Shown: one piece after another, positions 16,215 to 57,265 of the stretch
Layout: each line of letters starts with the position of its first letter
Position numbering within the stretch: the first letter of the stretch is position 1
Assembly (NCBI GenBank): GCA_045561055.1
Contig: JBJKYL010000010.1
Coordinates: 287,051-351,050, forward strand
DNA from: Candidatus Rariloculaceae bacterium
Lineage (GTDB): Bacteria; Pseudomonadota; Gammaproteobacteria; Steroidobacterales; Rariloculaceae
Length of the DNA: 64,000 nt
Reading direction: 5' to 3'
The notes under the pieces: generated by a model
Database searches by the model: none
What the model was told of the DNA's origin: nothing
The model's input: the letters and a program-made list of their open reading frames with translations, nothing else
Program-made: the position numbers and the translations under genes

Positions 16215-16298
16215 ATCAAGTACTTAATTCTTTTGTACTTAGTTTGTAGGCTATTATCATCAATATTTACCTTTCGTGGCGAAAGCCGGTTCGGAGTA

Positions 16299-16826
16299 AT
16301 GAAAGATTTGTGGCGCCTTGGAATAGTATTTGTGGATATTGCTCTGCACCGTCGTGGCCCGGAGCATATACCATCATCGGCCTTCTTGTTCGGTCTTCTT
16401 ACGACCATATATTTAATCGTGAGCATTGTCGCGACGCAGGTTGCGGAGCCGTTTCCCCAGAGCCGTGGGCATGGTCATTTTCGAGACACGTTGCTTTTAT
16501 CTCGGCTTTATTTGGTTGCTGTTATCAATTCGATCGTAGTACCTGATCGTTTCTACCAAACAGTGTCCGCGATATTTGGGGCACAGACGTTCTTAACTCT
16601 TATCGGTATCCCGATTCTGATTAGTATTGGCATCGAGAGTGGTGAAATCGAAACTTTCAATGTAGGCAGCTGGCTGTTTTTTATATTGATACTCTGGTCC
16701 ATCGACATTGCCAAGTTTTGTGTTGTCACGCGCGCTACAATTATCGTATTTCTTGGGTGTGCTTATCGTACTAGGGTATTCGTTCAGTTCGCTCACGCTT
16801 GGCGGACTGTTATTCCCGGTAGCTAG
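16299..16826 (+). CDS. Hypothetical integral membrane protein
   Basis: Several hydrophobic segments and no motif I recognise. The start could be 16233 or 16299. The C-terminal 30 aa look atypical, so integrity is uncertain given the neighbouring frameshifted region. Confidence 0.3.
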   Translation: MKDLWRLGIVFVDIALHRRGPEHIPSSAFLFGLLTTIYLIVSIVATQVAEPFPQSRGHGHFRDTLLLSRLYLVAVINSIVVPDRFYQTVSAIFGAQTFLTLIGIPILISIGIESGEIETFNVGSWLFFILILWSIDIAKFCVVTRATIIVFLGCAYRTRVFVQFAHAWRTVIPGS

Positions 16827-16829
16827 CTG

Positions 16830-18215
16830 ATGCGCGTTCACATTCTTGGAATCTGTGGCACCTTTATGGGTGGCGTTGCAGCACTCGCGAAAGCGGCCGG
16901 TCATCAGGTTTCCCGGTTCCGATGAGAATGTCTATCCACCGATGAGTACGCAGCTGCGTAAGCTAGGTATTAGGCTGTACGAAGGCTACGATGATCGTCC
17001 AATTCGACGATGATCTGGTCTCGACTGTGTGGTCGTTGGCAATGTTCTTAGTCGTGGGAATTCTGCTATTGAGGCGTTGTTGGACTCTGGCCTTCTCCCT
17101 ACTATTCAGGGCCGGAATGGCTGACTAACAATGTTTTGTCCGACAAGTGGGTGCTTGCTGTTGCTGGTACTCACGGTAAGACGACGACTACCAGCATGTT
17201 GGCCTGGATACTCGACTATGCTGGATTATCACCAGGCTTTCTAATTGGCGGTGTCCCCATAAATTTCGGTATCTCTGCTCGTATTGGCCGATCGAAGTAT
17301 TTCGTTGTTGAAGCTGACGAATACGACACAGCGTTCTTCGACAAAACGCGCGAAGTTTGTCCATTATCGTCCGAGAACGCTGGCCATCACCAATATCGAA
17401 TACGATCATGCGGATATCTACGCGAATCTCGAAGCGATACTCTGGCAGTTTCATCAGCTTGTCAGGACCGTACCCAACAGCGGTTTGATCACAGTAAACG
17501 GCCGGGATCCGAACGTTGATGATCTTTTGGCCCTCGGTTCTTGGACTCCCATTGAGACATTCATCTCTGATGATACCGCTGCGACTTGGTCGGCAAGCTA
17601 TGACCTAATCGGCGCGAAATCACGTTTTCAGCATTTCGCGTCGCGGGTGAGCGTGTCGGGCAGGCCGACTGGGGCCTTGCTTGGGCGTCACAACCTTGAA
17701 AACGCACTGGCGGCTTTGAGTTCCGCAGTGCATGCGGGGCGTGGGAATCGATATTGCTCTCGAGGCGCTTTCAAGATTTAAGGGCGTCAAGCGCCGCCTA
17801 GATAAGAGAGGGGTATTCAAGGGTATTACGTTGTATGATGACTTCGCGCACCATCCTACAGCAATCGAAACGACACTCGCCGCGGTCAGGACACAAAAGG
17901 CCGAACAGCGAATCGTTGCGGTTATAGAGCTAAAATCCAACTCAATGCGTATGGGCGTGCAGCCGCGATGGCATGGTTAAGGCGCTCAGCAAAGCCGATC
18001 TAGTCCACATTTTGGTAAGTGATGACTTAAACTGGAAACCGGAATTCTCATTCGCCGCGATCGGAGAGAAGCTGACCGTTTCGTATGACGTCGATGAGTT
18101 GCTGGAGTCGCTTCTCGGCCAGCTAGAGTCCAGCGATCAGGTAGTTTTGATGTCAAATAGTAATTTTCGGGGCTTACCGAGGCTTCTACAGCAAGCGCTA
18201 AAGAGCAGCCTTTAG
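16830..18215 (+). pseudogene. mpl: UDP-N-acetylmuramate:L-Ala-gamma-D-Glu-meso-DAP ligase (murein peptide ligase), disrupted by multiple frame changes
   Basis: Mpl-like sequence is spread over all three + frames: MRVHILGICGTFMGG..., [40 protein letters not shown]...VVEADEYDTAFFDK, KFVHYRPRTLAITNIEYDHADIY, KGVKRRL...YDDFAHHPTAI and the C-terminal ...VVLMSNSNF. There are at least five frame switches and an in-frame TGA near 17008. Confidence 0.85.
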
Positions 18216-18266
18216 AGACTAAAGAGCACCTAAGGTGCTTAGAATTGGTGCCACGCACTGAGAAGT

Positions 18267-18491
18267 CTAGTCATGTTTCCCTCGGGCGATTCGAGATCTA
18301 TCAGCGTCTTTATTAATATCGGCAAGTCGATACAGGTCGTCGACGATGTTCGGGAGTGGGTGGTCCTGTTCGCGCAGGTAATGCACGGAACCTAAAAGCC
18401 AGATATCCGCGCTGTCAGTGCGCACGTGCCAGGCAGCTGGGTCAGCCCAGGTTGCTGGAGTTAATAAAAAAAATAGTATGGCGAGCCTCAT
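18267..18491 (-). pseudogene. N-terminal stub of a TraB/GumN-family protein
   Basis: 74 codons: a signal peptide plus ...IWLLGSVHYLREQDHPLPNIVDDLYRLAD, which is the family's N-terminal motif. It then stops, whereas full-length members are about 290 aa. No continuation exists in any frame before the mpl stop. Confidence 0.55.
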
Positions 18492-19260
18492 GTTGTTCTG
18501 CTCTCTTTAAGCCAATCGATCTCGGTGGAGATAGAGCCCTCGGTCTTTAGTGTGAGCCAACGTGAACCCGGCGGTTGTGTGCCCAGTGCGAATGTATCGC
18601 TTCCGGGAAGAAATTGAACGCAAGTAGACGGAGTACTCAGGAAGCGAATTCCGTCGCGTGTGCGATCCGAGACCTGATGAACATGTCCCCAGAGGACTCC
18701 CCGAACATTCTCATGCTGCTCGATGCAGGTTAAAAATTCTTTGGCATCTATGAGCCCGATCTTGTCGAGCCAGGTGCTACCCATCGGCAGGGGCTGGTGA
18801 TGCATACAAAATTAGCATGTGCTTGTCAGGGTGTGCGGCAAGAGTATTGGAGAGTTCGATAAGCTGCTCCTTACCAAGCCTGCCACCAGCTTCACAACCG
18901 GTTAAAGTGTTAAGGAAGACAAGCATCCAGTTAGTAATAGTCGTTTCGCCGCAAATCTGGAATGGCGCGTCAGCGAGCATCTCTACCATGAGTTGTAGAT
19001 TGTCGTGGTTTCCCGGCAAGCAAAAGATTGGGAGGCCAAGTGGTTTAAGTGCCTCGCGAAAATGTTTATAGCCAGCGCGGCTTTCATCTTGAACGATGTC
19101 GCCAGTGACTACGATCGCATCGGGTGGCCAGCGAGTATCACTTTGCACCTGGTCTAGGACAGCGAGGAATGTCTCGTAGGTGGGGACTCCCCGCATCCTA
19201 ACGTCGGCAGCAGCATGCAGATGAATGTCGGGTAATTTGTAGAAGGACAGCCGGGCGCAT
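18488..19260 (-). pseudogene. cpdA: 3',5'-cyclic-nucleotide phosphodiesterase (CpdA-like metallophosphoesterase), frameshifted
   Basis: Three pieces in different frames: MRPAVLLQIT..., then ...VVTGDIVQD...CLPGNHD..., then HHQPLPMGSTWLD...WGHVHQ...STPSTCVQF. Frame breaks lie at about 19230 and about 18805. Confidence 0.8.
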
Positions 19261-19437
19261 GATATTACTATAGGTGATCGGTGTCAGGTTGGTGGCCAGT
19301 TTGTCCGCATCATACGCAAATACTTCCTCGTAAATCAGTATTGGCTAACAGATATTCGGAAAATCATTATAGAGGTTGCGGAAGGGTGTCTGACGTAGGC
19401 GACAATCTTCCTGATTCGGTTCCACTAGAAAACCCCA

Positions 19438-21481
19438 ATGACCACCACAGTAGAAAACAGCACGTCTTCCGTGAGGCCGCCCAGGCGTAAACTTGCCGAT
19501 GCAATTCGTGTTTTGTCCATGGACGCAGTCGAGAATGCGGGTTGTGGTCATCCTGGTATGCCAATGGGTATGGCGGATATTGCTGAGGTCTTGTGGGGCA
19601 ACTATCTTCGCCACAACCCGGCAAATCCATTGTGGCATGACCGTGATCGCTTCGTCCTGTCGAACGGGCACGGCTCCATGTTGTTATATGCGGTTTGCTT
19701 ATCTGCGTGGTTACCCGCTTGAGCTGGAAGAAATCAAGAATTTCCGGCAGTTGGGCCAACGTACCGCGGGGGCATCCTGAGCGCGATCTCGATATAGGTA
19801 TTGAGACGACGACTGGACCGCTTGGTCAGGGGTTCGCAAATGCTGTCGGTATGGCTCTAGGGGAAAAGGTTCTCGCCGCGACTTTCAATCGACTGCCAGA
19901 ACACGACATTGTCAATCATTACACTTATGTTTTTCTGGGTGACGGCTGCATGATGGAGGGTATTTCTCATGAAGCTTGTTCTTTGGCGGGTACGCTCAAG
20001 CTAGGGAAGTTAGTCGCGTTTTACGATGACAACGGCATCTCAATCGATGGTGAGACAGATGGCTGGTTTACCGACGATACTCCGGAGCGATTTCGCGCGT
20101 ACGGTTGGCACGTCGTTGAAGATATCGATGGTCACGATTCCGACAATATCATTGCGGCAGTGGAGGCGGCGCGGGGAGAGTCCGACCGACCAAGCTTGCT
20201 CTGCTGTAAGACAGTGATAGGCTATGGATCGCCTAACAAGCAGGGTACGGCAGATACCCACGGCGCTGCTTTGGGAGCAGACGAGATTGCGGCAACGCGT
20301 GTGAATCTTGGTTGGGAGCATCCGCCTTTCGTCGTACCCGAAGATATTCGCGCAGCATGGGATGGAACTGAGCGAGGATGTGATCTCGAGTCCGACTGGC
20401 AGATGAGATTCGAAGACTATGCGCGGGCAGCATCCCAAATTGGCTGCTGAGTTCTCAAGACGTATGGTCGGTGAGCGGCCCGTTAATTGGTTGGCTAACT
20501 CTTCGGCCGTCGTCGACGCGGTTGCGGGTGAGGCTAAAGATATGGCAACCCGCAAGGCGTCACAGCGAGCGCTTGAGGGGTTCGCGCCGTATTTGCCGGA
20601 ACTCTTTGGCGGTTCAGCGGATTTGACTGGCTCTAACAACACGTTCCATTCCGGTTCCGTAGTTGTTAATACCGATAGTGGCGAAGGAAATTACTTACAT
20701 TTCGGCGTCCGTGAATTCGCCATGGCGGCGATTTCGAATGGCCTTAGTCTCCATGGTGGCTTCATCCCATATAGTGGCACCTTTCTGGTGTTCTCTGATT
20801 ATTCGCGGAACGCGCTGCGTATGGCTGCCTTAATCAAGACTCAGAATATTTTCGTTTTTACTCACGATTCTATCGGTCTCGGCGAAGATGGCCCTACTCA
20901 CCAGCCGATAGAACATATAGCTAGTCTGCGCGCGATGCCTAACATGCACGTGTGGCGTCCCTGCGATGCCGTGGAGACGGCTGTAGCATGGCGGGGAGCG
21001 CTGGAAAAGACGACCGGGCCGACGAGCCTGATTCTTACGCGTCAGAGTCTACCGCATATCCCGCGTACGGCGGATCAGATTGATGCGGTAGCGCGTGGCG
21101 GTTACATTCTTTTCGACAGTGATGTTGAGCCGGAGCTGATTCTCATCGCCACCGGTTCTGAAGTTGGTCTCGCGATGGCTGCTGCTCGACAACTTCAAAG
21201 CGAAGGGTGCCGAGTCCGTGTTGTGTCCATGCCTTTGTACGGAACTCTTTGACGAGCAAAGCGAATCGTATCGGAAGCATGTGCTGCCGCTCGGTGACGC
21301 CCGGCGCCTTGCTATAGAAGCTGGCGCCGCTGACAGCTGGTGGCGCTATGTCGATGGTCGCGGTGATGTCATCGGTATTGCGCGTTTCGGTCAGTCTGCC
21401 CCTGCTGCGGCCCTGTTCGAAGAATACGGCTTCACCGTGCGGGCAGTTACGGCAGCGGCTCAGCGCTTGTTATCAAGTTAA
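19438..21481 (+). pseudogene. tkt: Transketolase, interrupted by four frame changes
   Basis: Highly conserved Tkt sequence sits in four or five ORF pieces: [16 protein letters not shown]; [15 protein letters not shown]; HPE...[10 protein letters not shown]...[12 protein letters not shown]; [10 protein letters not shown]...[15 protein letters not shown]...WRPCD; then the C-terminus from CTELFDEQ. Apart from the frame shifts there are no in-frame stops. Confidence 0.85.
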
Positions 21482-25034: not shown

Positions 25035-26499
25035 AGTAAAAGAGATACCGTTGCGTCGTACTAAAATTGTCGCCACGCTTGGCCCTGCTACGGACGATCC
25101 GATTGTGTTGGAAAATATGATTCGCGCCGGTGTTGATGTCTTGCGGATAAATTTTTCCCACGGAGTTACTAAAGACCGGGCTGAGCGTGTCGCAAAGGTG
25201 CGTGCAGTTGCAAAAAAGATAGGGCGGGATGTTGCGATCATGGGTGATCTACAAGGGGGTAAAATCCGTATCGAATCGTTCGTATCGAGCCCTATCGAGC
25301 TTATAGAAGGAGAGTCTTTCGCACTGGATGCAGCGATTAGCCCGAATGCAGGTTCGCGCGAAGCGGTGGGAGTGGGCTATTCGAATCTCGCAAAGGAAGT
25401 CGCTGAGGGTGATGTGCTGCTGCTAGACGATGGCCGCGTCGTGCTCGATGTGGAGAAAATAAGCGGCACGCGCGTGCATTGCCGGGTAAGGCACGGCGGT
25501 AAGCTTTCTGACAACAAAGGCGTGAACAGGCAAGGCGGCGGACTATCAGCGCCGGCGCTCACGAACAAAGACCGCGCGGATATCAAAATTGTTGCAGAAC
25601 TCGGCTTCGATTTCCTATCCATATCTTTTGCGCGTGATGCCGCTGACATCGATGAGGCACGCAGCTTGTTACGCCATGCCGGAAGCGAAGCTCATGTCGT
25701 CGCTAAAATCGAGCGCGCTGAAGCCGTAGAGAACATCGAAGATATTATCGATGCTAGTGACGTCATTATGGTTGCGCGGGGTGACCTTGCAGTAGAGGTC
25801 GGTTACGCGGCTATGACAGGTTTACAGAAAGCGTTGATTCGAAACGCTCGGGCACGTAACTGTGTTTCGATAACCGCAACGCAAATGCTTGAATCAATGA
25901 TTAGCCAGACGACTCCAACCCGCGCAGAAGTGTCCGATGTGGCCAATGCTGTCATGGACGGCACTGATGCCGTGATGCTGTCGGCTGAGACCGCGGTTGG
26001 GCGCTATCCTGTTCAGGCCGTGCGGACCATGAGCGAGGTATGTGTAGGAGCAGAGAAACATGAGGTTTTCAAACGAGCAAGAAATCTCCGGCTAGAGGAT
26101 GCGTTCGATCGGGTAGATGAAGCCATCGCTATCGCGGCAATGTTTGTGGCTAATCACCTTAACGTCAAGGGGATTATTGCGTTAACTGAGTCAGGAGCGA
26201 CGACGCTGTGGATGTCGCGTCTAAGATCGGAGATTCCGATCTATGCATTCACTCGGCATGAGACAACGCGGCGGCGTGTCATGCTTTATCGTGGTGTATA
26301 TCCAGAGAGTATCGAAATCATCCATACTGATCCCGCTATCATGCATCAGAGCGTATTCGATGTGCTACTGCGAGATGGGATTATGTGTCCAGGTGATCTG
26401 GCTTTGTTCACGACAGGTGATTTGTGCGGTGTCGCAGGACAAACCAATACATTACAGATTATAGAAATTCCGTCGGGGGCCTCCTCCCCCACCACGTGA
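25009..26499 (+). CDS. pykA: Pyruvate kinase (PykA-like)
   Basis: Motifs RRTKIVATLGPAT, INFSHG, MVARGDLAVE and TQMLESM. The start is ambiguous (ATG 25009 or 25024) and overlaps the preceding gene. Confidence 0.9.
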   Translation: MKLILMVAEVKEIPLRRTKIVATLGPATDDPIVLENMIRAGVDVLRINFSHGVTKDRAERVAKVRAVAKKIGRDVAIMGDLQGGKIRIESFVSSPIELIEGESFALDAAISPNAGSREAVGVGYSNLAKEVAEGDVLLLDDGRVVLDVEKISGTRVHCRVRHGGKLSDNKGVNRQGGGLSAPALTNKDRADIKIVAELGFDFLSISFARDAADIDEARSLLRHAGSEAHVVAKIERAEAVENIEDIIDASDVIMVARGDLAVEVGYAAMTGLQKALIRNARARNCVSITATQMLESMISQTTPTRAEVSDVANAVMDGTDAVMLSAETAVGRYPVQAVRTMSEVCVGAEKHEVFKRARNLRLEDAFDRVDEAIAIAAMFVANHLNVKGIIALTESGATTLWMSRLRSEIPIYAFTRHETTRRRVMLYRGVYPESIEIIHTDPAIMHQSVFDVLLRDGIMCPGDLALFTTGDLCGVAGQTNTLQIIEIPSGASSPTT

Positions 26500-26520: not shown

Positions 26521-27018
26521 CTATTCTTCCAGGTGCCGGTGCGGGCGGAGCATATCAAATCGACGCATTAAAATGATGGAGGATCTGAATCTAGATATTC
26601 TCCTTTGACAAACTTGTGGCAAGGCCCCTGCGATATATTCAGAGCGAAGTTGATCGCCTGTGCAGCCTATCGCTATGGTGAGATAGGAGCATTGGAAGTC
26701 CCGACAAAATGAGATCAAGTCACGCAGAAAGTCGCCGATATTTTCAATCATCTTCTGTACCTGTTTTTGTCCATTTAAAAAATCGCGAACGGGTTTATCT
26801 TTGCCATTTAGCAGCCTGAGTTTCGGTTCCTAATACGGGTTGGGTAAGCAGAGTACGTCAAAGACAAAATCGGCATCCGCCGGTAGGCTGTGCTTGTAGC
26901 CAAACGACTCTATTAGTATTGAAAGTGCGGTATCTTTGCGCTTACCGATATGCTCTTTAACCAGTTGACGTAAGTCATAAACCGCCATCGTGCTTGTATC
27001 GATGATGAGATCGACGGG
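26521..27018 (-). pseudogene. rapZ: RNase adapter protein RapZ (YhbJ), N-terminally truncated and decayed
   Basis: The minus strand reads DLIIDTSTMAVYDLRQLV...ESFGYKHSLPADADFVFDV..LPNPY*EPKLR...SYLTIAIGCTGDQLRSEYIA. The Walker-A N-terminus is missing. An in-frame TAG (26830-26832) sits where family members have the Trp of NP.W.P.LR, and another stop lies at 27019-27021. The GCTGG.HRSV motif is degraded. Confidence 0.75.
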
Positions 27019-27098
27019 CTAGTGGCCATCAGCTTCGAAATTAATATCCTCACTGCGGCTTGGAAGAGCTCTAACCCCCCCCCTCCTCTACGCGGCCC

Positions 27099-37620: not shown

Positions 37621-37971
37621 GGGAGTCGGCCGGGCAGTCGCTGGGAATATCTTCGGATATGGCCGGAGGAAAGTCCGGGCTCCATTGGGCAGGGTGCCAG
37701 GTAACGCCTGGGAGGCGTGAGCCTACGGCTAGTGCCACAGAAAATATACCGCCGGATTCGTATTCGGTAAGGGTGAAAAGGTGCGGTAAGAGCGCACCGC
37801 GCATGTGGTAACACACTGCGGCACGGTAAACCCCACCCGGAGCAAGACCGAATAGGGGAGCGTTTTAGTGAGCCCACACAAGCTCCCGGGTAGGTCGCTA
37901 GAGATGTGCGGTAACGCGCATTCGAGATGAATGACTGCTCTCGACAGAACCCGGCTTATAGGCCGGCTCCC
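37621..37971 (+). ncRNA. rnpB: RNase P RNA (bacterial type A)
   Basis: Universally conserved blocks GAGGAAAGTCCGGGCTCC, GGGTGCCAGGTAACGCCTGGG, GGTAAGGGTGAAA.GGTGCGGTAAGAGCGCACC and ACAGAACCCGGCTTAT. P1 pairs GGGAGTCGGCC (5') with GGCCGGCTCCC (3'), followed by a T-run. This explains the pile of spurious minus-strand ORFs at 37553-37998. Confidence 0.95.
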
Positions 37972-38131
37972 TTTTTCTTTTTTGTAGAAGTGCTCCAAAG
38001 AGACCCAGATCCTAGAAACGAATGAGATTAACGCTTATAAGTCATTGATTTTTAGTAGTCAGTCATCCCCCCTAGAATCCGGACCTCCTTCCTAACTTAC
38101 TGGTAAACAAAAAAAATATTAGTTTCTTCGG

Positions 38132-56317: not shown

Positions 56318-57265
56318 ATGAATGAGGGGACGGAGCAGCATCCCATGGAATTGATTATTCTATCGAAGAATCGTGGCCGTTTAGGTCACTTAGAGCTGAC
56401 CTCCCGGCGAGTCCGGTTTGGACTTGCAGGGCTTGTGCTGCTTGGTTGTGCGGGCGTCTTCTATGGCGGTTTCGTGGCCGCCACTAAATTCGGCTTGGCT
56501 AATCCCACCAATCAGATCGCTGATTGGCAGGCCAATATCGACGAGCAGAAAACAGAACTTTATAACACCCGTAAAGCGGTGATGAATAACCTCCATGCTC
56601 TTGCTTTGCGGTTAGGACAGATGAACTCTCACGTGGTGCGACTCGATGCGCTGGGACAGCGACTTACGCAAATGGCGGGTTTCGAAGATGGCGAATTTAA
56701 TTTTACGGTGCCACCTTCTCTGGGGGGGCCCGAGGAAATCCTGACGCGAGATGATATGAATCAGGTTTCTGGACTGTTCTCGGCACTAGATGAGCTGGAT
56801 AGCCAGCTCACTAACCGCCAGCAACAGCTCCGCATACTTGAAGGCTTGCTCCTTAATCGCAAACTTCAGGATGAGGTTCATCCTGAGGGCAGGCCTATTT
56901 CCTCGGGTTACATCTCATCAGGTTTTGGCAATCGCATGGATCCGTTCACGGGTCGTGTGGCCTTTCACGAGGGAATTGACTTTGCGGGGAAGGAAGGCAC
57001 AGATGTGGTTGCGGTTGCTTCGGGCGTTGTGACCTGGTCAGGTAATCGTTATGGTTACGGTAAGATCGTAGAGATCACTCATGGTAATGGTTACGTGACT
57101 CTATACGCTCATAACGCTGAGAACTTTGTCGCAGTTGGAGATACTATAAAACGTGGAGAAATCATCGCTTCGATGGGCTCTACGGGACGCGCAACCGGAC
57201 CGAACTTGCATTTCGAAGTTTTACGGAATGGCAGAGTTGTAGACCCCTTGACCTATATTAACTAG
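56318..57265 (+). CDS. M23-family metallopeptidase (murein DD-endopeptidase-like)
   Basis: N-terminal TM helix, a coiled coil, and a C-terminal LytM domain (HEGIDFAG...GYG..VEI.HGNGY.T.YAH...GSTGR.TGP.LHFE). The start is ATG 56318 or 56345. Confidence 0.85.
   Translation: MNEGTEQHPMELIILSKNRGRLGHLELTSRRVRFGLAGLVLLGCAGVFYGGFVAATKFGLANPTNQIADWQANIDEQKTELYNTRKAVMNNLHALALRLGQMNSHVVRLDALGQRLTQMAGFEDGEFNFTVPPSLGGPEEILTRDDMNQVSGLFSALDELDSQLTNRQQQLRILEGLLLNRKLQDEVHPEGRPISSGYISSGFGNRMDPFTGRVAFHEGIDFAGKEGTDVVAVASGVVTWSGNRYGYGKIVEITHGNGYVTLYAHNAENFVAVGDTIKRGEIIASMGSTGRATGPNLHFEVLRNGRVVDPLTYIN

Follow-up and report, generated by a model that had tools for sequence, protein, structure and literature searches.

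In reductive genomes such as those of Mycobacterium leprae and Sodalis, true decay leaves pseudogenes in which deletions are at least as frequent as insertions, nonsense substitutions occur, the substitution rate is raised and lesions are common to related genomes. Bacterial mutation is reportedly deletion-biased in general, as Mira, Ochman and Moran are said to have found in 2001. In phase-variable contingency loci the tracts that switch expression are usually at least 7 nt long, usually occur once per gene and vary in length in both directions within a population. Errors in long-read assemblies, for their part, are said to affect protein prediction (a point attributed to Watson and Warr, Nat Biotechnol, 2019).

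The locus described here lies in a window of 64,000 bp, by which we mean the whole stretch of DNA that was analysed. It resembles the pseudogene clusters of M. leprae and Sodalis in that adjacent housekeeping genes are multiply frameshifted and the peptides between the breaks are recognisable, but differs from such true decay in showing insertions without deletions, without a substitution excess and without sharing among relatives. Like a contingency locus, it has a reading frame that hangs on homopolymer length, although its tracts are short, number up to 10 per gene and are invariant elsewhere. With long-read (PacBio or Nanopore) or hybrid assemblies carrying indel errors it shares lesions that are indel-only and homopolymer-biased, that strike coding and non-coding DNA and that are absent from independent high-accuracy assemblies, as well as ORFs that are fully restored on their removal and fragment proteins emitted by automatic annotation. 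Unlike long-read indel error in general, the errors are exclusively insertions and occupy one stretch of ∼4.8 kb, at least 59 kb being otherwise clean. Our analysis indicates that the breaks in these genes almost certainly do not belong to the organism but are a local artefact, of assembly or consensus, in the deposited sequence.

Results

Extent of the affected stretch

Nineteen independent public assemblies from the same population served for comparison with the whole window; together they covered all 64,000 bp at least once and 58,230 bp at least twice, and 13 of them (NCBI MAG, ENA and JGI metagenome contigs, and Logan contigs) touched the affected stretch. Relative to these assemblies the window carried 23 insertion events amounting to 29 nt and no deletion, all of them within positions 16455–21234 (Table 1). 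Sixteen events fell inside mpl, cpdA and tkt, six in a gene for a 174-aa membrane protein immediately upstream of mpl, and one in the spacer between cpdA and tkt. Their density was uneven, the left 1.5 kb (16455–17962) holding 16 of them and the right 2.4 kb (18808–21234) seven. Both boundaries were sharp, the 23 window-private indels of the 4,780-bp stretch standing against none in the remaining 59,220 bp. When the intact orthologues of mpl (462 aa), cpdA (276 aa) and tkt (678 aa) from the nearest other species (L001, used as outgroup) were searched by tblastn, each aligned across several frames, and the ORF list held nothing but fragments between 16.8 and 21.5 kb. A search for tRNAs and other RNA genes within the stretch found none. 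The GC content of the stretch (0.47–0.55) was like that of its flanks, and a foreign or compositionally odd segment was rejected on this ground.

The initial annotation had placed in this region at least 12 frame-breaking lesions spread over four adjacent genes in an otherwise undisturbed window, and had called their clustering non-random. The cluster was indeed evident from both tblastn and the ORF list, and the probability of all 23 events falling in one given 4,780-bp stretch (∼1e-26) bears out its non-randomness, but the number of events proved to be 23. Among the four genes, mpl, cpdA and tkt were broken as described, whereas the fourth, a gumN stub, carried an older, shared truncation and no window-private lesion. 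No private indel was found outside the stretch; the damage, however, starts at 16455, ∼375 bp before the supposed left end at 16830, in a fifth gene. This 174-aa gene had looked intact because, though scrambled, it is still open as a 197-aa ORF (16233–16826); its true stop codon, TGA at 16828–16830, overlaps the ATG of mpl.

Table 1. Features of the affected stretch and window-private lesions. Positions are those of the window; 'elsewhere' refers to the other assemblies of the same population, and fractions give the covering assemblies that do not have the lesion. (a), homopolymer already listed in the initial annotation.
Feature	Position	Strand	Gene or region	Remarks
Affected stretch	16455..21236	none		23 window-private insertion events, ∼4.8 kb
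174-aa hydrophobic membrane-protein gene	16299..16830	+		6 insertion events, 7 nt
mpl (UDP-N-acetylmuramate:L-Ala-gamma-D-Glu-meso-DAP ligase)	16830..18215	+		10 insertion events
TraB/PrgY/GumN-family remnant, 74 aa	18267..18491	-		zero window-private lesions
cpdA (3',5'-cyclic-AMP phosphodiesterase)	18488..19260	-		2 insertion events
tkt (transketolase)	19438..21481	+		4 insertion events
CCCC (elsewhere CCC), +1	16455..16458		174-aa gene	absent 8/8
Extra GA: GAGA (elsewhere GA)	16485..16486		174-aa gene	absent 8/8
TTTT (elsewhere TTT), +1	16495..16498		174-aa gene	absent 8/8
Messy patch: extra G 16539 and extra A 16541, neither run-extending	16533..16541			absent 8/8
Private substitution in same messy patch, A (elsewhere T)	16533			absent 8/8
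CC (elsewhere C), +1	16711..16712		174-aa gene	absent 8/8
CCC (elsewhere CC), +1 (a)	16912..16914		mpl	absent 8/8
CC (elsewhere C), +1	16999..17000		mpl	absent 8/8
Extra TCTGG before TCTCG, imperfect duplication	17014..17018		mpl	absent 8/8
Extra TC: TCTC (elsewhere TC)	17094..17095		mpl	absent 7/7
AAAA (elsewhere AAA), +1 (a)	17343..17346		mpl	absent 7/7
TTTT (elsewhere TTT), +1	17625..17628		mpl	absent 7/7
GGG (elsewhere GG), +1	17645..17647		mpl	absent 7/7
GGGG (elsewhere GGG), +1	17671..17674		mpl	absent 7/7
GGGG (elsewhere GGG), +1 (a)	17736..17739		mpl	absent 7/7
Extra G, not run-extending	17962..17962		mpl	absent 8/8
AAAA (elsewhere AAA), +1	18808..18811		cpdA	absent 10/10
GGG (elsewhere GG), +1 (a)	19230..19232		cpdA	absent 10/10
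GGG (elsewhere GG), +1	19384..19386		177-bp cpdA-tkt intergenic spacer	absent 10/10
TTT (elsewhere TT), +1	19694..19696		tkt	absent 6/6
GGGGG (elsewhere GGGG), +1 (a)	19768..19772		tkt	absent 6/6
GGG (elsewhere GG), +1	20425..20427		tkt	absent 7/7
TTT (elsewhere TT), +1 (a)	21234..21236		tkt	absent 10/10

Absence of the insertions from other assemblies

None of the 23 insertions was found in the 6–10 assemblies covering each site, and no length variation was seen at any of these sites among them. The contigs of SRR28395889, a PacBio Sequel II CCS run with at least 15 passes (CCS15) (PMC11898729), differed from the window by only three substitutions in 22,480 bp (0.13 per kb) and were without the insertion at all seven sites that they covered. 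Those of SRR31420721, at 0.56 substitutions per kb, lacked the insertion at all 23 sites and showed no indel elsewhere over 46 kb. A search of JGI metagenomes with a pattern admitting either version of positions 16990–17035 matched two contigs, both insertion-free. As the same-sample origin of the comparison assemblies and the MAG is unproven, the absence of the insertions strictly applies to the population, including a near-identical strain, and not to the sequenced DNA itself. A scan of the GTDB representative genomes with Gap found none of the window's species, the best match being L001 at 84% identity. A look-up with the 315-aa ORF at 56318–57265 gave no match, and the neighbouring ZapD gene was used in its place.

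Restored products and the deposited record

Removal of the 29 nt restored proteins of 174, 456, 256 and 679 aa. The restored Mpl (456 aa) scored 596.1 bits with TIGR01081, the restored CpdA (256 aa) 232.4 bits with NF008359 and the restored Tkt (679 aa) 914.1 bits with TIGR00232, the respective NCBIfam equivalog cut-offs being 388.7, 225 and 682.25. The restored CpdA was identical to protein P0005, which occurs on nine other contigs. For the 174-aa protein there was no NCBIfam match and only a sub-threshold Pfam match, and no family was assigned. The orthologues were read as a single frame in L001 and in every other assembly of the same species. The independent assemblies show that the real sequence of the population carries the 174-aa gene, mpl, cpdA and tkt uninterrupted.

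The insertions are present in the deposited NCBI MAG (Candidatus Rariloculaceae bacterium, locus tag ACJ0S4), in which the window lies on a contig of 382,247 bp. In GenBank, cpdA appears as two halves, MFL2553645.1 (105 aa, 'hypothetical protein', locus tag ACJ0S4_02945) and MFL2553646.1 (164 aa, 'metallophosphoesterase'), the latter of which spells out both cpdA insertions. An exact-sequence look-up of ten fragment ORFs found one on record, the 105-aa C-terminal fragment of cpdA; mpl and tkt are presumably frameshifted in the public record as well. No paper on the ACJ0S4 MAG turned up in literature searches for its family, locus tag or accessions.

Error spectrum

All 23 events being insertions, a sign test against 0 deletions gave p = 1e-7. 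Among the 20 single-base insertions, 17 duplicated a neighbouring base (expected fraction 0.445, p = 2e-4) and 15 extended a run of at least two (p = 4e-9), the insertion rate per run climbing from 0.1% for runs of one base to 4.8% for runs of three. Once the extra bases were taken out, the tracts measured 1–4 nt. The overall rate in the stretch was 0.48% insertions. Window-private substitutions numbered three in the 4.78-kb stretch versus 18 in 38.7 kb outside, so that no excess was found in the stretch. The events took no account of coding potential, one being intergenic (19384) and six lying in a gene that stays open.

Exceptions to the +1 homopolymer pattern were two dinucleotide duplications (GA and TC), the 5-nt TCTGG and three single bases that did not duplicate a neighbour. 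The last three and TCTGG are not simple homopolymer over-calls, and were counted against an artefact.

The gumN remnant

The 74-aa gumN stub was called identically in seven of the nine contigs that carry intact cpdA, and its counterpart in L001 is full length (286 aa). Against PF01963 the stub matched profile positions 2–40 of 263 only, with 21.1 bits (cut-off 26.8), whereas the L001 orthologue scored 224.8 bits. Judged from these matches, the stub is a remnant and not a member of the TraB/PrgY/GumN family; its truncation is older, population-wide and separate from the insertion artefact. It is the only feature of the window that fits the decay seen in true pseudogene clusters.

Discussion

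The initial annotation had left two explanations side by side, a low-quality stretch with homopolymer over-calls and very recent slippage-driven inactivation. The first is strongly supported by the absence of the insertions from all covering assemblies. Each of the six homopolymers that had been listed exceeds, by exactly one base, its length in all other assemblies of this population, and what had been named as the decisive check, listed homopolymers one base shorter together with restored single ORFs, was seen in independent assemblies, among them one built from the CCS15 reads of an almost identical strain. The description of the lesions as often homopolymer +1 holds for the majority of single-base events, but not for GA, TC, TCTGG and the three non-duplicating bases.

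Since the errors are confined to ∼4.8 kb and consist of insertions only, they point to a local low-pass or low-coverage patch rather than to a generally unpolished assembly. The affected stretch is probably a read-length piece backed solely by low-accuracy long-read data. It may go back to a single low-accuracy long read or a small number of them, e.g. low-pass PacBio reads bridging or closing the assembly, and high-accuracy data would have corrected the flanks but not the stretch. The consensus of this one read-length stretch would thus have kept its insertion errors (about 0.5%), mostly +1 in short homopolymers, and NCBI annotation would then have yielded fragment proteins from the uncorrected sequence. 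Both the platform and an origin in one low-pass read are inferred. The size of the stretch and its error rate agree with those of one PacBio read with few passes: PacBio reads are typically 5–15 kb (PMC11898729), and long reads have been given an average of 5.4 kb, a PacBio accuracy of ∼99% at 5 passes and, in hybrid assembly, a use in gap closure (PMC8430335).

Genuine and very recent pseudogenisation, in which the MAG captured one strain whose mpl, cpdA, tkt and 174-aa genes had been inactivated by slippage insertions, is very unlikely. It could draw on the presence of the lesions in the deposited record, on homopolymer +1 being a product of replication slippage, and on some gene loss at the locus, the adjoining gumN having truly decayed in the lineage. 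However, 23 insertions accompany three private substitutions inside the stretch, as against no indel and 18 substitutions in the flanks, and at ∼0.05% divergence neutral decay is expected to give far fewer than one indel. Deletions are wholly absent, the intergenic spacer was struck too, and not one of the lesions is common to any of the 13 other assemblies, near-identical strains included. Pseudogenisation would moreover have struck transketolase, a central enzyme, and leaves the sharp stop of the lesions at both ends without explanation. Recent slippage-driven inactivation is effectively excluded, because there are insertions only, no substitution excess, coding and non-coding DNA are affected alike, and the lesions occur in no other sample.

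It is extremely unlikely that the insertions are real in the sense of a localised, insertion-only mutational burst, such as an error-prone repair tract of ∼5 kb, in one strain that lost four housekeeping genes and was still abundant. A localised, insertion-biased hypermutation patch in the sequenced lineage, arising for example from error-prone break-repair synthesis or a frameshift mutagen, is barely conceivable. A repair tract might in principle account for the sharp boundaries, the ∼5-kb size and the gradient in density, but none of the known bacterial processes fills a 5-kb tract with insertions of +1 to +5 alone while leaving base substitutions out; the mutagenesis that accompanies DinB-type repair consists chiefly of −1 frameshifts and substitutions. 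A cell with four inactivated genes would also need to be abundant enough to dominate the metagenome consensus, and the same signature is that of textbook long-read consensus error.

Functional recoding by programmed ribosomal frameshifting, transcriptional slippage or phase-variable tracts permitting expression, to which the location of lesions in short homopolymers might lend itself, has a negligible probability and is already refuted by the comparison with other assemblies, since the orthologues are single ORFs there and in L001 with no conserved slippery-site frameshift, the corrected tracts are only 1–4 nt and invariant in length in all other assemblies, and up to 10 shifts per gene are incompatible with any known recoding; a programmed ribosomal frameshift and a phase-variable contingency locus were both rejected as candidates on these grounds.

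Read as an artefact of the deposited sequence, the insertion cluster is without biological significance and matters for data quality. The case shows that a check against independent public assemblies can tell such an artefact from decay even when the reads are not to hand. The public MAG record contains spurious fragment proteins, among them the two CpdA halves, and for metabolic reconstruction or pseudogene counts from this genome the corrected sequence (the window minus 29 bases) is advised. Taken at face value, the record could be misread as the loss of peptidoglycan recycling, of cAMP turnover and of the transketolase step in a marine lineage.

Results

Between 16.8 and 21.5 kb the ORF list of the window held only short fragments, the remainder being filled by long ORFs, and three-frame translation of 16830-18260 showed an Mpl-like protein jumping between frames (table). 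Scanned with Gap, whose intact gene adjoins the stretch, the GTDB representative genomes included no same-species genome for this member of the Rariloculaceae, a family within the Gammaproteobacteria. The nearest representative, L001 (Gap identity 84%), had intact genes in the same order as the window, with gap last. When L001 proteins were aligned to the window by tblastn, mpl fell into at least five pieces, cpdA into two and tkt into five, with hints that the membrane-protein gene upstream also changes frame. The GC content of the affected stretch was unremarkable. No tRNAs were found in the window, and its sole Rfam match was bacterial RNase P RNA class A (RF00010, 336 bits), located upstream of the mraZ-ftsZ cluster of division and cell-wall genes.

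Comparison contigs came from the NCBI MAG GCA_964512575.1, from ENA and JGI metagenome assemblies and from Logan assemblies, each built from a single sequencing run. They were retrieved through exact matches to Gap, MurF, FtsZ, ZapD, a GST, a protein of the OEP family and intact CpdA, and a pattern search of JGI metagenomes supplied two more. Together they covered 64,000 bp of the window at least once and 58,230 bp at least twice. Assemblies touching the affected stretch (n = 13) differed from the window by 0.13-9.25 substitutions per kb, and those farther off by up to 11.7 per kb. Many marine metagenomes contain the window population (nucleotide identity 98.8-99.99%), among them runs from the Mediterranean, JGI samples and an assembly from Tara Oceans; it is a widespread pelagic lineage.

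All five genes from the upstream gene to tkt were called intact in the comparison assemblies. Indels private to the window, i.e. absent from all other covering assemblies of the same population, amounted to 23 insertion events (29 nt) and no deletions, all within 16455-21234. Each insertion was lacking in every assembly covering its site, from 6/6 to 10/10 depending on the site. The disrupted cluster described in the initial annotation is present, its extent and lesion count needing correction to 23 events beginning at 16455. The six homopolymers listed there (CCC 16912-16914, AAAA 17343-17346, GGGG 17736-17739, GGG 19230-19232, GGGGG 19768-19772 and TTT 21234-21236) were each exactly one base longer than in the other assemblies. 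The upstream gene, in which ∼30 mid residues and the last ∼38 residues are out of frame, had seemed intact because no shifted frame happens to hold a stop; its ORF ends at TAG 16824-16826, the proper stop being TGA 16828-16830, which overlaps the mpl start.

Features of the affected stretch and other sites in the window. Scores are for proteins restored by deleting the inserted bases.
Feature	Position (strand)	Private insertion events	Comparison assemblies (aa)	L001 (aa, strand)	Profile	Bits (NCBIfam equivalog cut-off)
Upstream gene (membrane protein in L001)		6	174	185		
mpl	16830-18260	10	456	462	TIGR01081	596 (389)
gumN stub	18267-18491 (-)	0	74	286 (-)		
cpdA		2	256	276 (-)	NF008359	232 (225)
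MFL2553646.1, N-terminal cpdA fragment	18780-19275 (-)					
cpdA-tkt spacer	19384 (event)	1				
tkt		4	679	678	TIGR00232	914 (682)
Variable intergenic segment	26478-26719					
190-bp piece	26530-26719					
C9 tract	27075-27083					
RNase P RNA	37622-37974 (+)					

Deleting the 29 bases gave uninterrupted ORFs (table), and the restored CpdA was identical to an intact CpdA encoded on nine other contigs. Logan contigs of SRR28395889, with only 3 substitutions in 22,480 bp relative to the window, lacked the insertions at all seven sites that they covered. This run, a metagenome collected off Alicante at a depth of 75 m and sequenced on PacBio Sequel II, yielded CCS reads of at least 15 passes with a stated accuracy of >99.99% (PMC11898729). 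Contigs of SRR31420721, at 0.56 substitutions per kb, covered all 23 sites, lacked all 23 insertions and showed no further indel across 46 kb. At the sites they cover, the assembled contigs of these two runs show the shorter homopolymers that the initial annotation expected of mapped raw reads if the breaks are an assembly artefact.

Comparison of the window with all covering assemblies detected no private indel outside the affected stretch; the few indels there were polymorphisms common to some assemblies or peculiar to single other contigs. Private substitutions were not raised in the stretch (3 in 4,780 bp inside versus 18 in 38,666 bp outside), and shared polymorphism was, if anything, lower inside. 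The uniform direction of the events (23/23 insertions) gave a sign-test p of 1e-7, and the chance that a given 4,780-bp stretch would contain every event was ∼1e-26. Among the single-base insertions, 17/20 duplicated a neighbouring base (random expectation 0.445, p = 2e-4) and 15/20 lengthened a run of at least two (p = 4e-9), the insertion rate per run rising from 0.1% at length 1 to 1.0% at length 2 and 4.8% at length 3. The remainder comprised two dinucleotide duplications (GA and TC), one insertion of TCTGG and three single bases not duplicating a neighbour, two of which lay in a messy patch (16533-16541) with a private substitution. Event density dropped from left to right, with 16 in 1.5 kb and then 7 in 2.4 kb.

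The gumN stub, counted initially as a fourth disrupted gene, does not belong with the others, as it carries no window-private lesion and its 74-aa gene was called in 7/9 contigs with intact cpdA. It matches only positions 2-40 of the 263 in PF01963, the L001 orthologue being full length. Its T8 run (18466-18473) was T9 in 3/10 assemblies, and one assembly (DRR683878) differed further nearby (18197-18212). The stub seems to be a true gene remnant of older date that drifts in the population, separate from the artefact.

Variable sites were also seen elsewhere. In the variable intergenic segment directly downstream of pyk, GCA_964512575.1 (L081) and L084 lacked a 190-bp piece that the window has in common with L082, L083 and L085, and several Logan contigs terminated at 26477; the segment may be a spacer that differs between strains, or a small mobile element or repeat. 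Between rpoN and the gene for a 52-aa PapZ_C-domain protein, the C9 tract was one base shorter in 2/7 assemblies and one longer in 1/7, which may reflect real variation in the population or the difficulty of sequencing a homopolymer. Two single-base indel polymorphisms, at 2931 and 3482, lie before or at the beginning of the gene for ribonucleotide reductase, and its called N-terminus varies with them (715, 740 or 744 aa); the window carries the minority state, 5/7 and 6/8 assemblies differing.

Discussion

The affected stretch is local low-quality sequence, one of the two readings initially proposed, as all 23 insertions are absent from every covering assembly. That seawater yielded a contig of 382 kb implies the use of long reads. 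Errors in PacBio subreads are characteristically dominated by insertions. The stretch is about as long as one PacBio read (5.4 kb on average, PMC8430335; typically 5-15 kb, PMC11898729), and its error rate of 0.48% is close to the figure quoted for CCS reads of roughly 5 passes (99% accuracy; PMC8430335). Long reads serve for gap closure in hybrid assemblies (PMC8430335). The most economical account, in which we infer both platform and coverage, is that the consensus here would rest on one or few low-accuracy long reads and the flanks on accurate data.

The other initial reading, recent inactivation, is rejected. A private divergence of ∼0.05% leaves the lineage far too little time to gather 23 neutral indels in 4.8 kb, and the spectrum is wrong: only insertions occur, nonsense substitutions are absent and the substitution rate is not raised. 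Furthermore, non-coding DNA (the cpdA-tkt spacer) is affected at an equal rate, none of the lesions is seen in other samples, and the process would need to have abrupt limits on either side. Tract length, the number of frame shifts in each gene and the single-frame orthologues rule out both phase variation and programmed frameshifting.

The errors of the low-quality stretch have reached the databases. By exact-sequence look-up, the C-terminal cpdA fragment (105 aa) is GenBank MFL2553645.1, 'MAG: hypothetical protein ACJ0S4_02945 [Candidatus Rariloculaceae bacterium]', on a 382,247-bp contig, adjoined by MFL2553646.1, a 164-aa 'metallophosphoesterase'. The latter shows both cpdA insertions, with ...YKLPDIHLH... 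at 19230 and an out-of-frame tail ...LILYASPAPADG after 18808; the lesions were therefore already in the public record and not introduced later. For MFL2553646.1 the annotation seems to use ATA, a non-canonical start codon, as the true ATG is out of frame beyond the 19230 insertion; this start is an annotation consequence of the artefact. The cluster is no real biological feature of this organism but flags erroneous public annotation.
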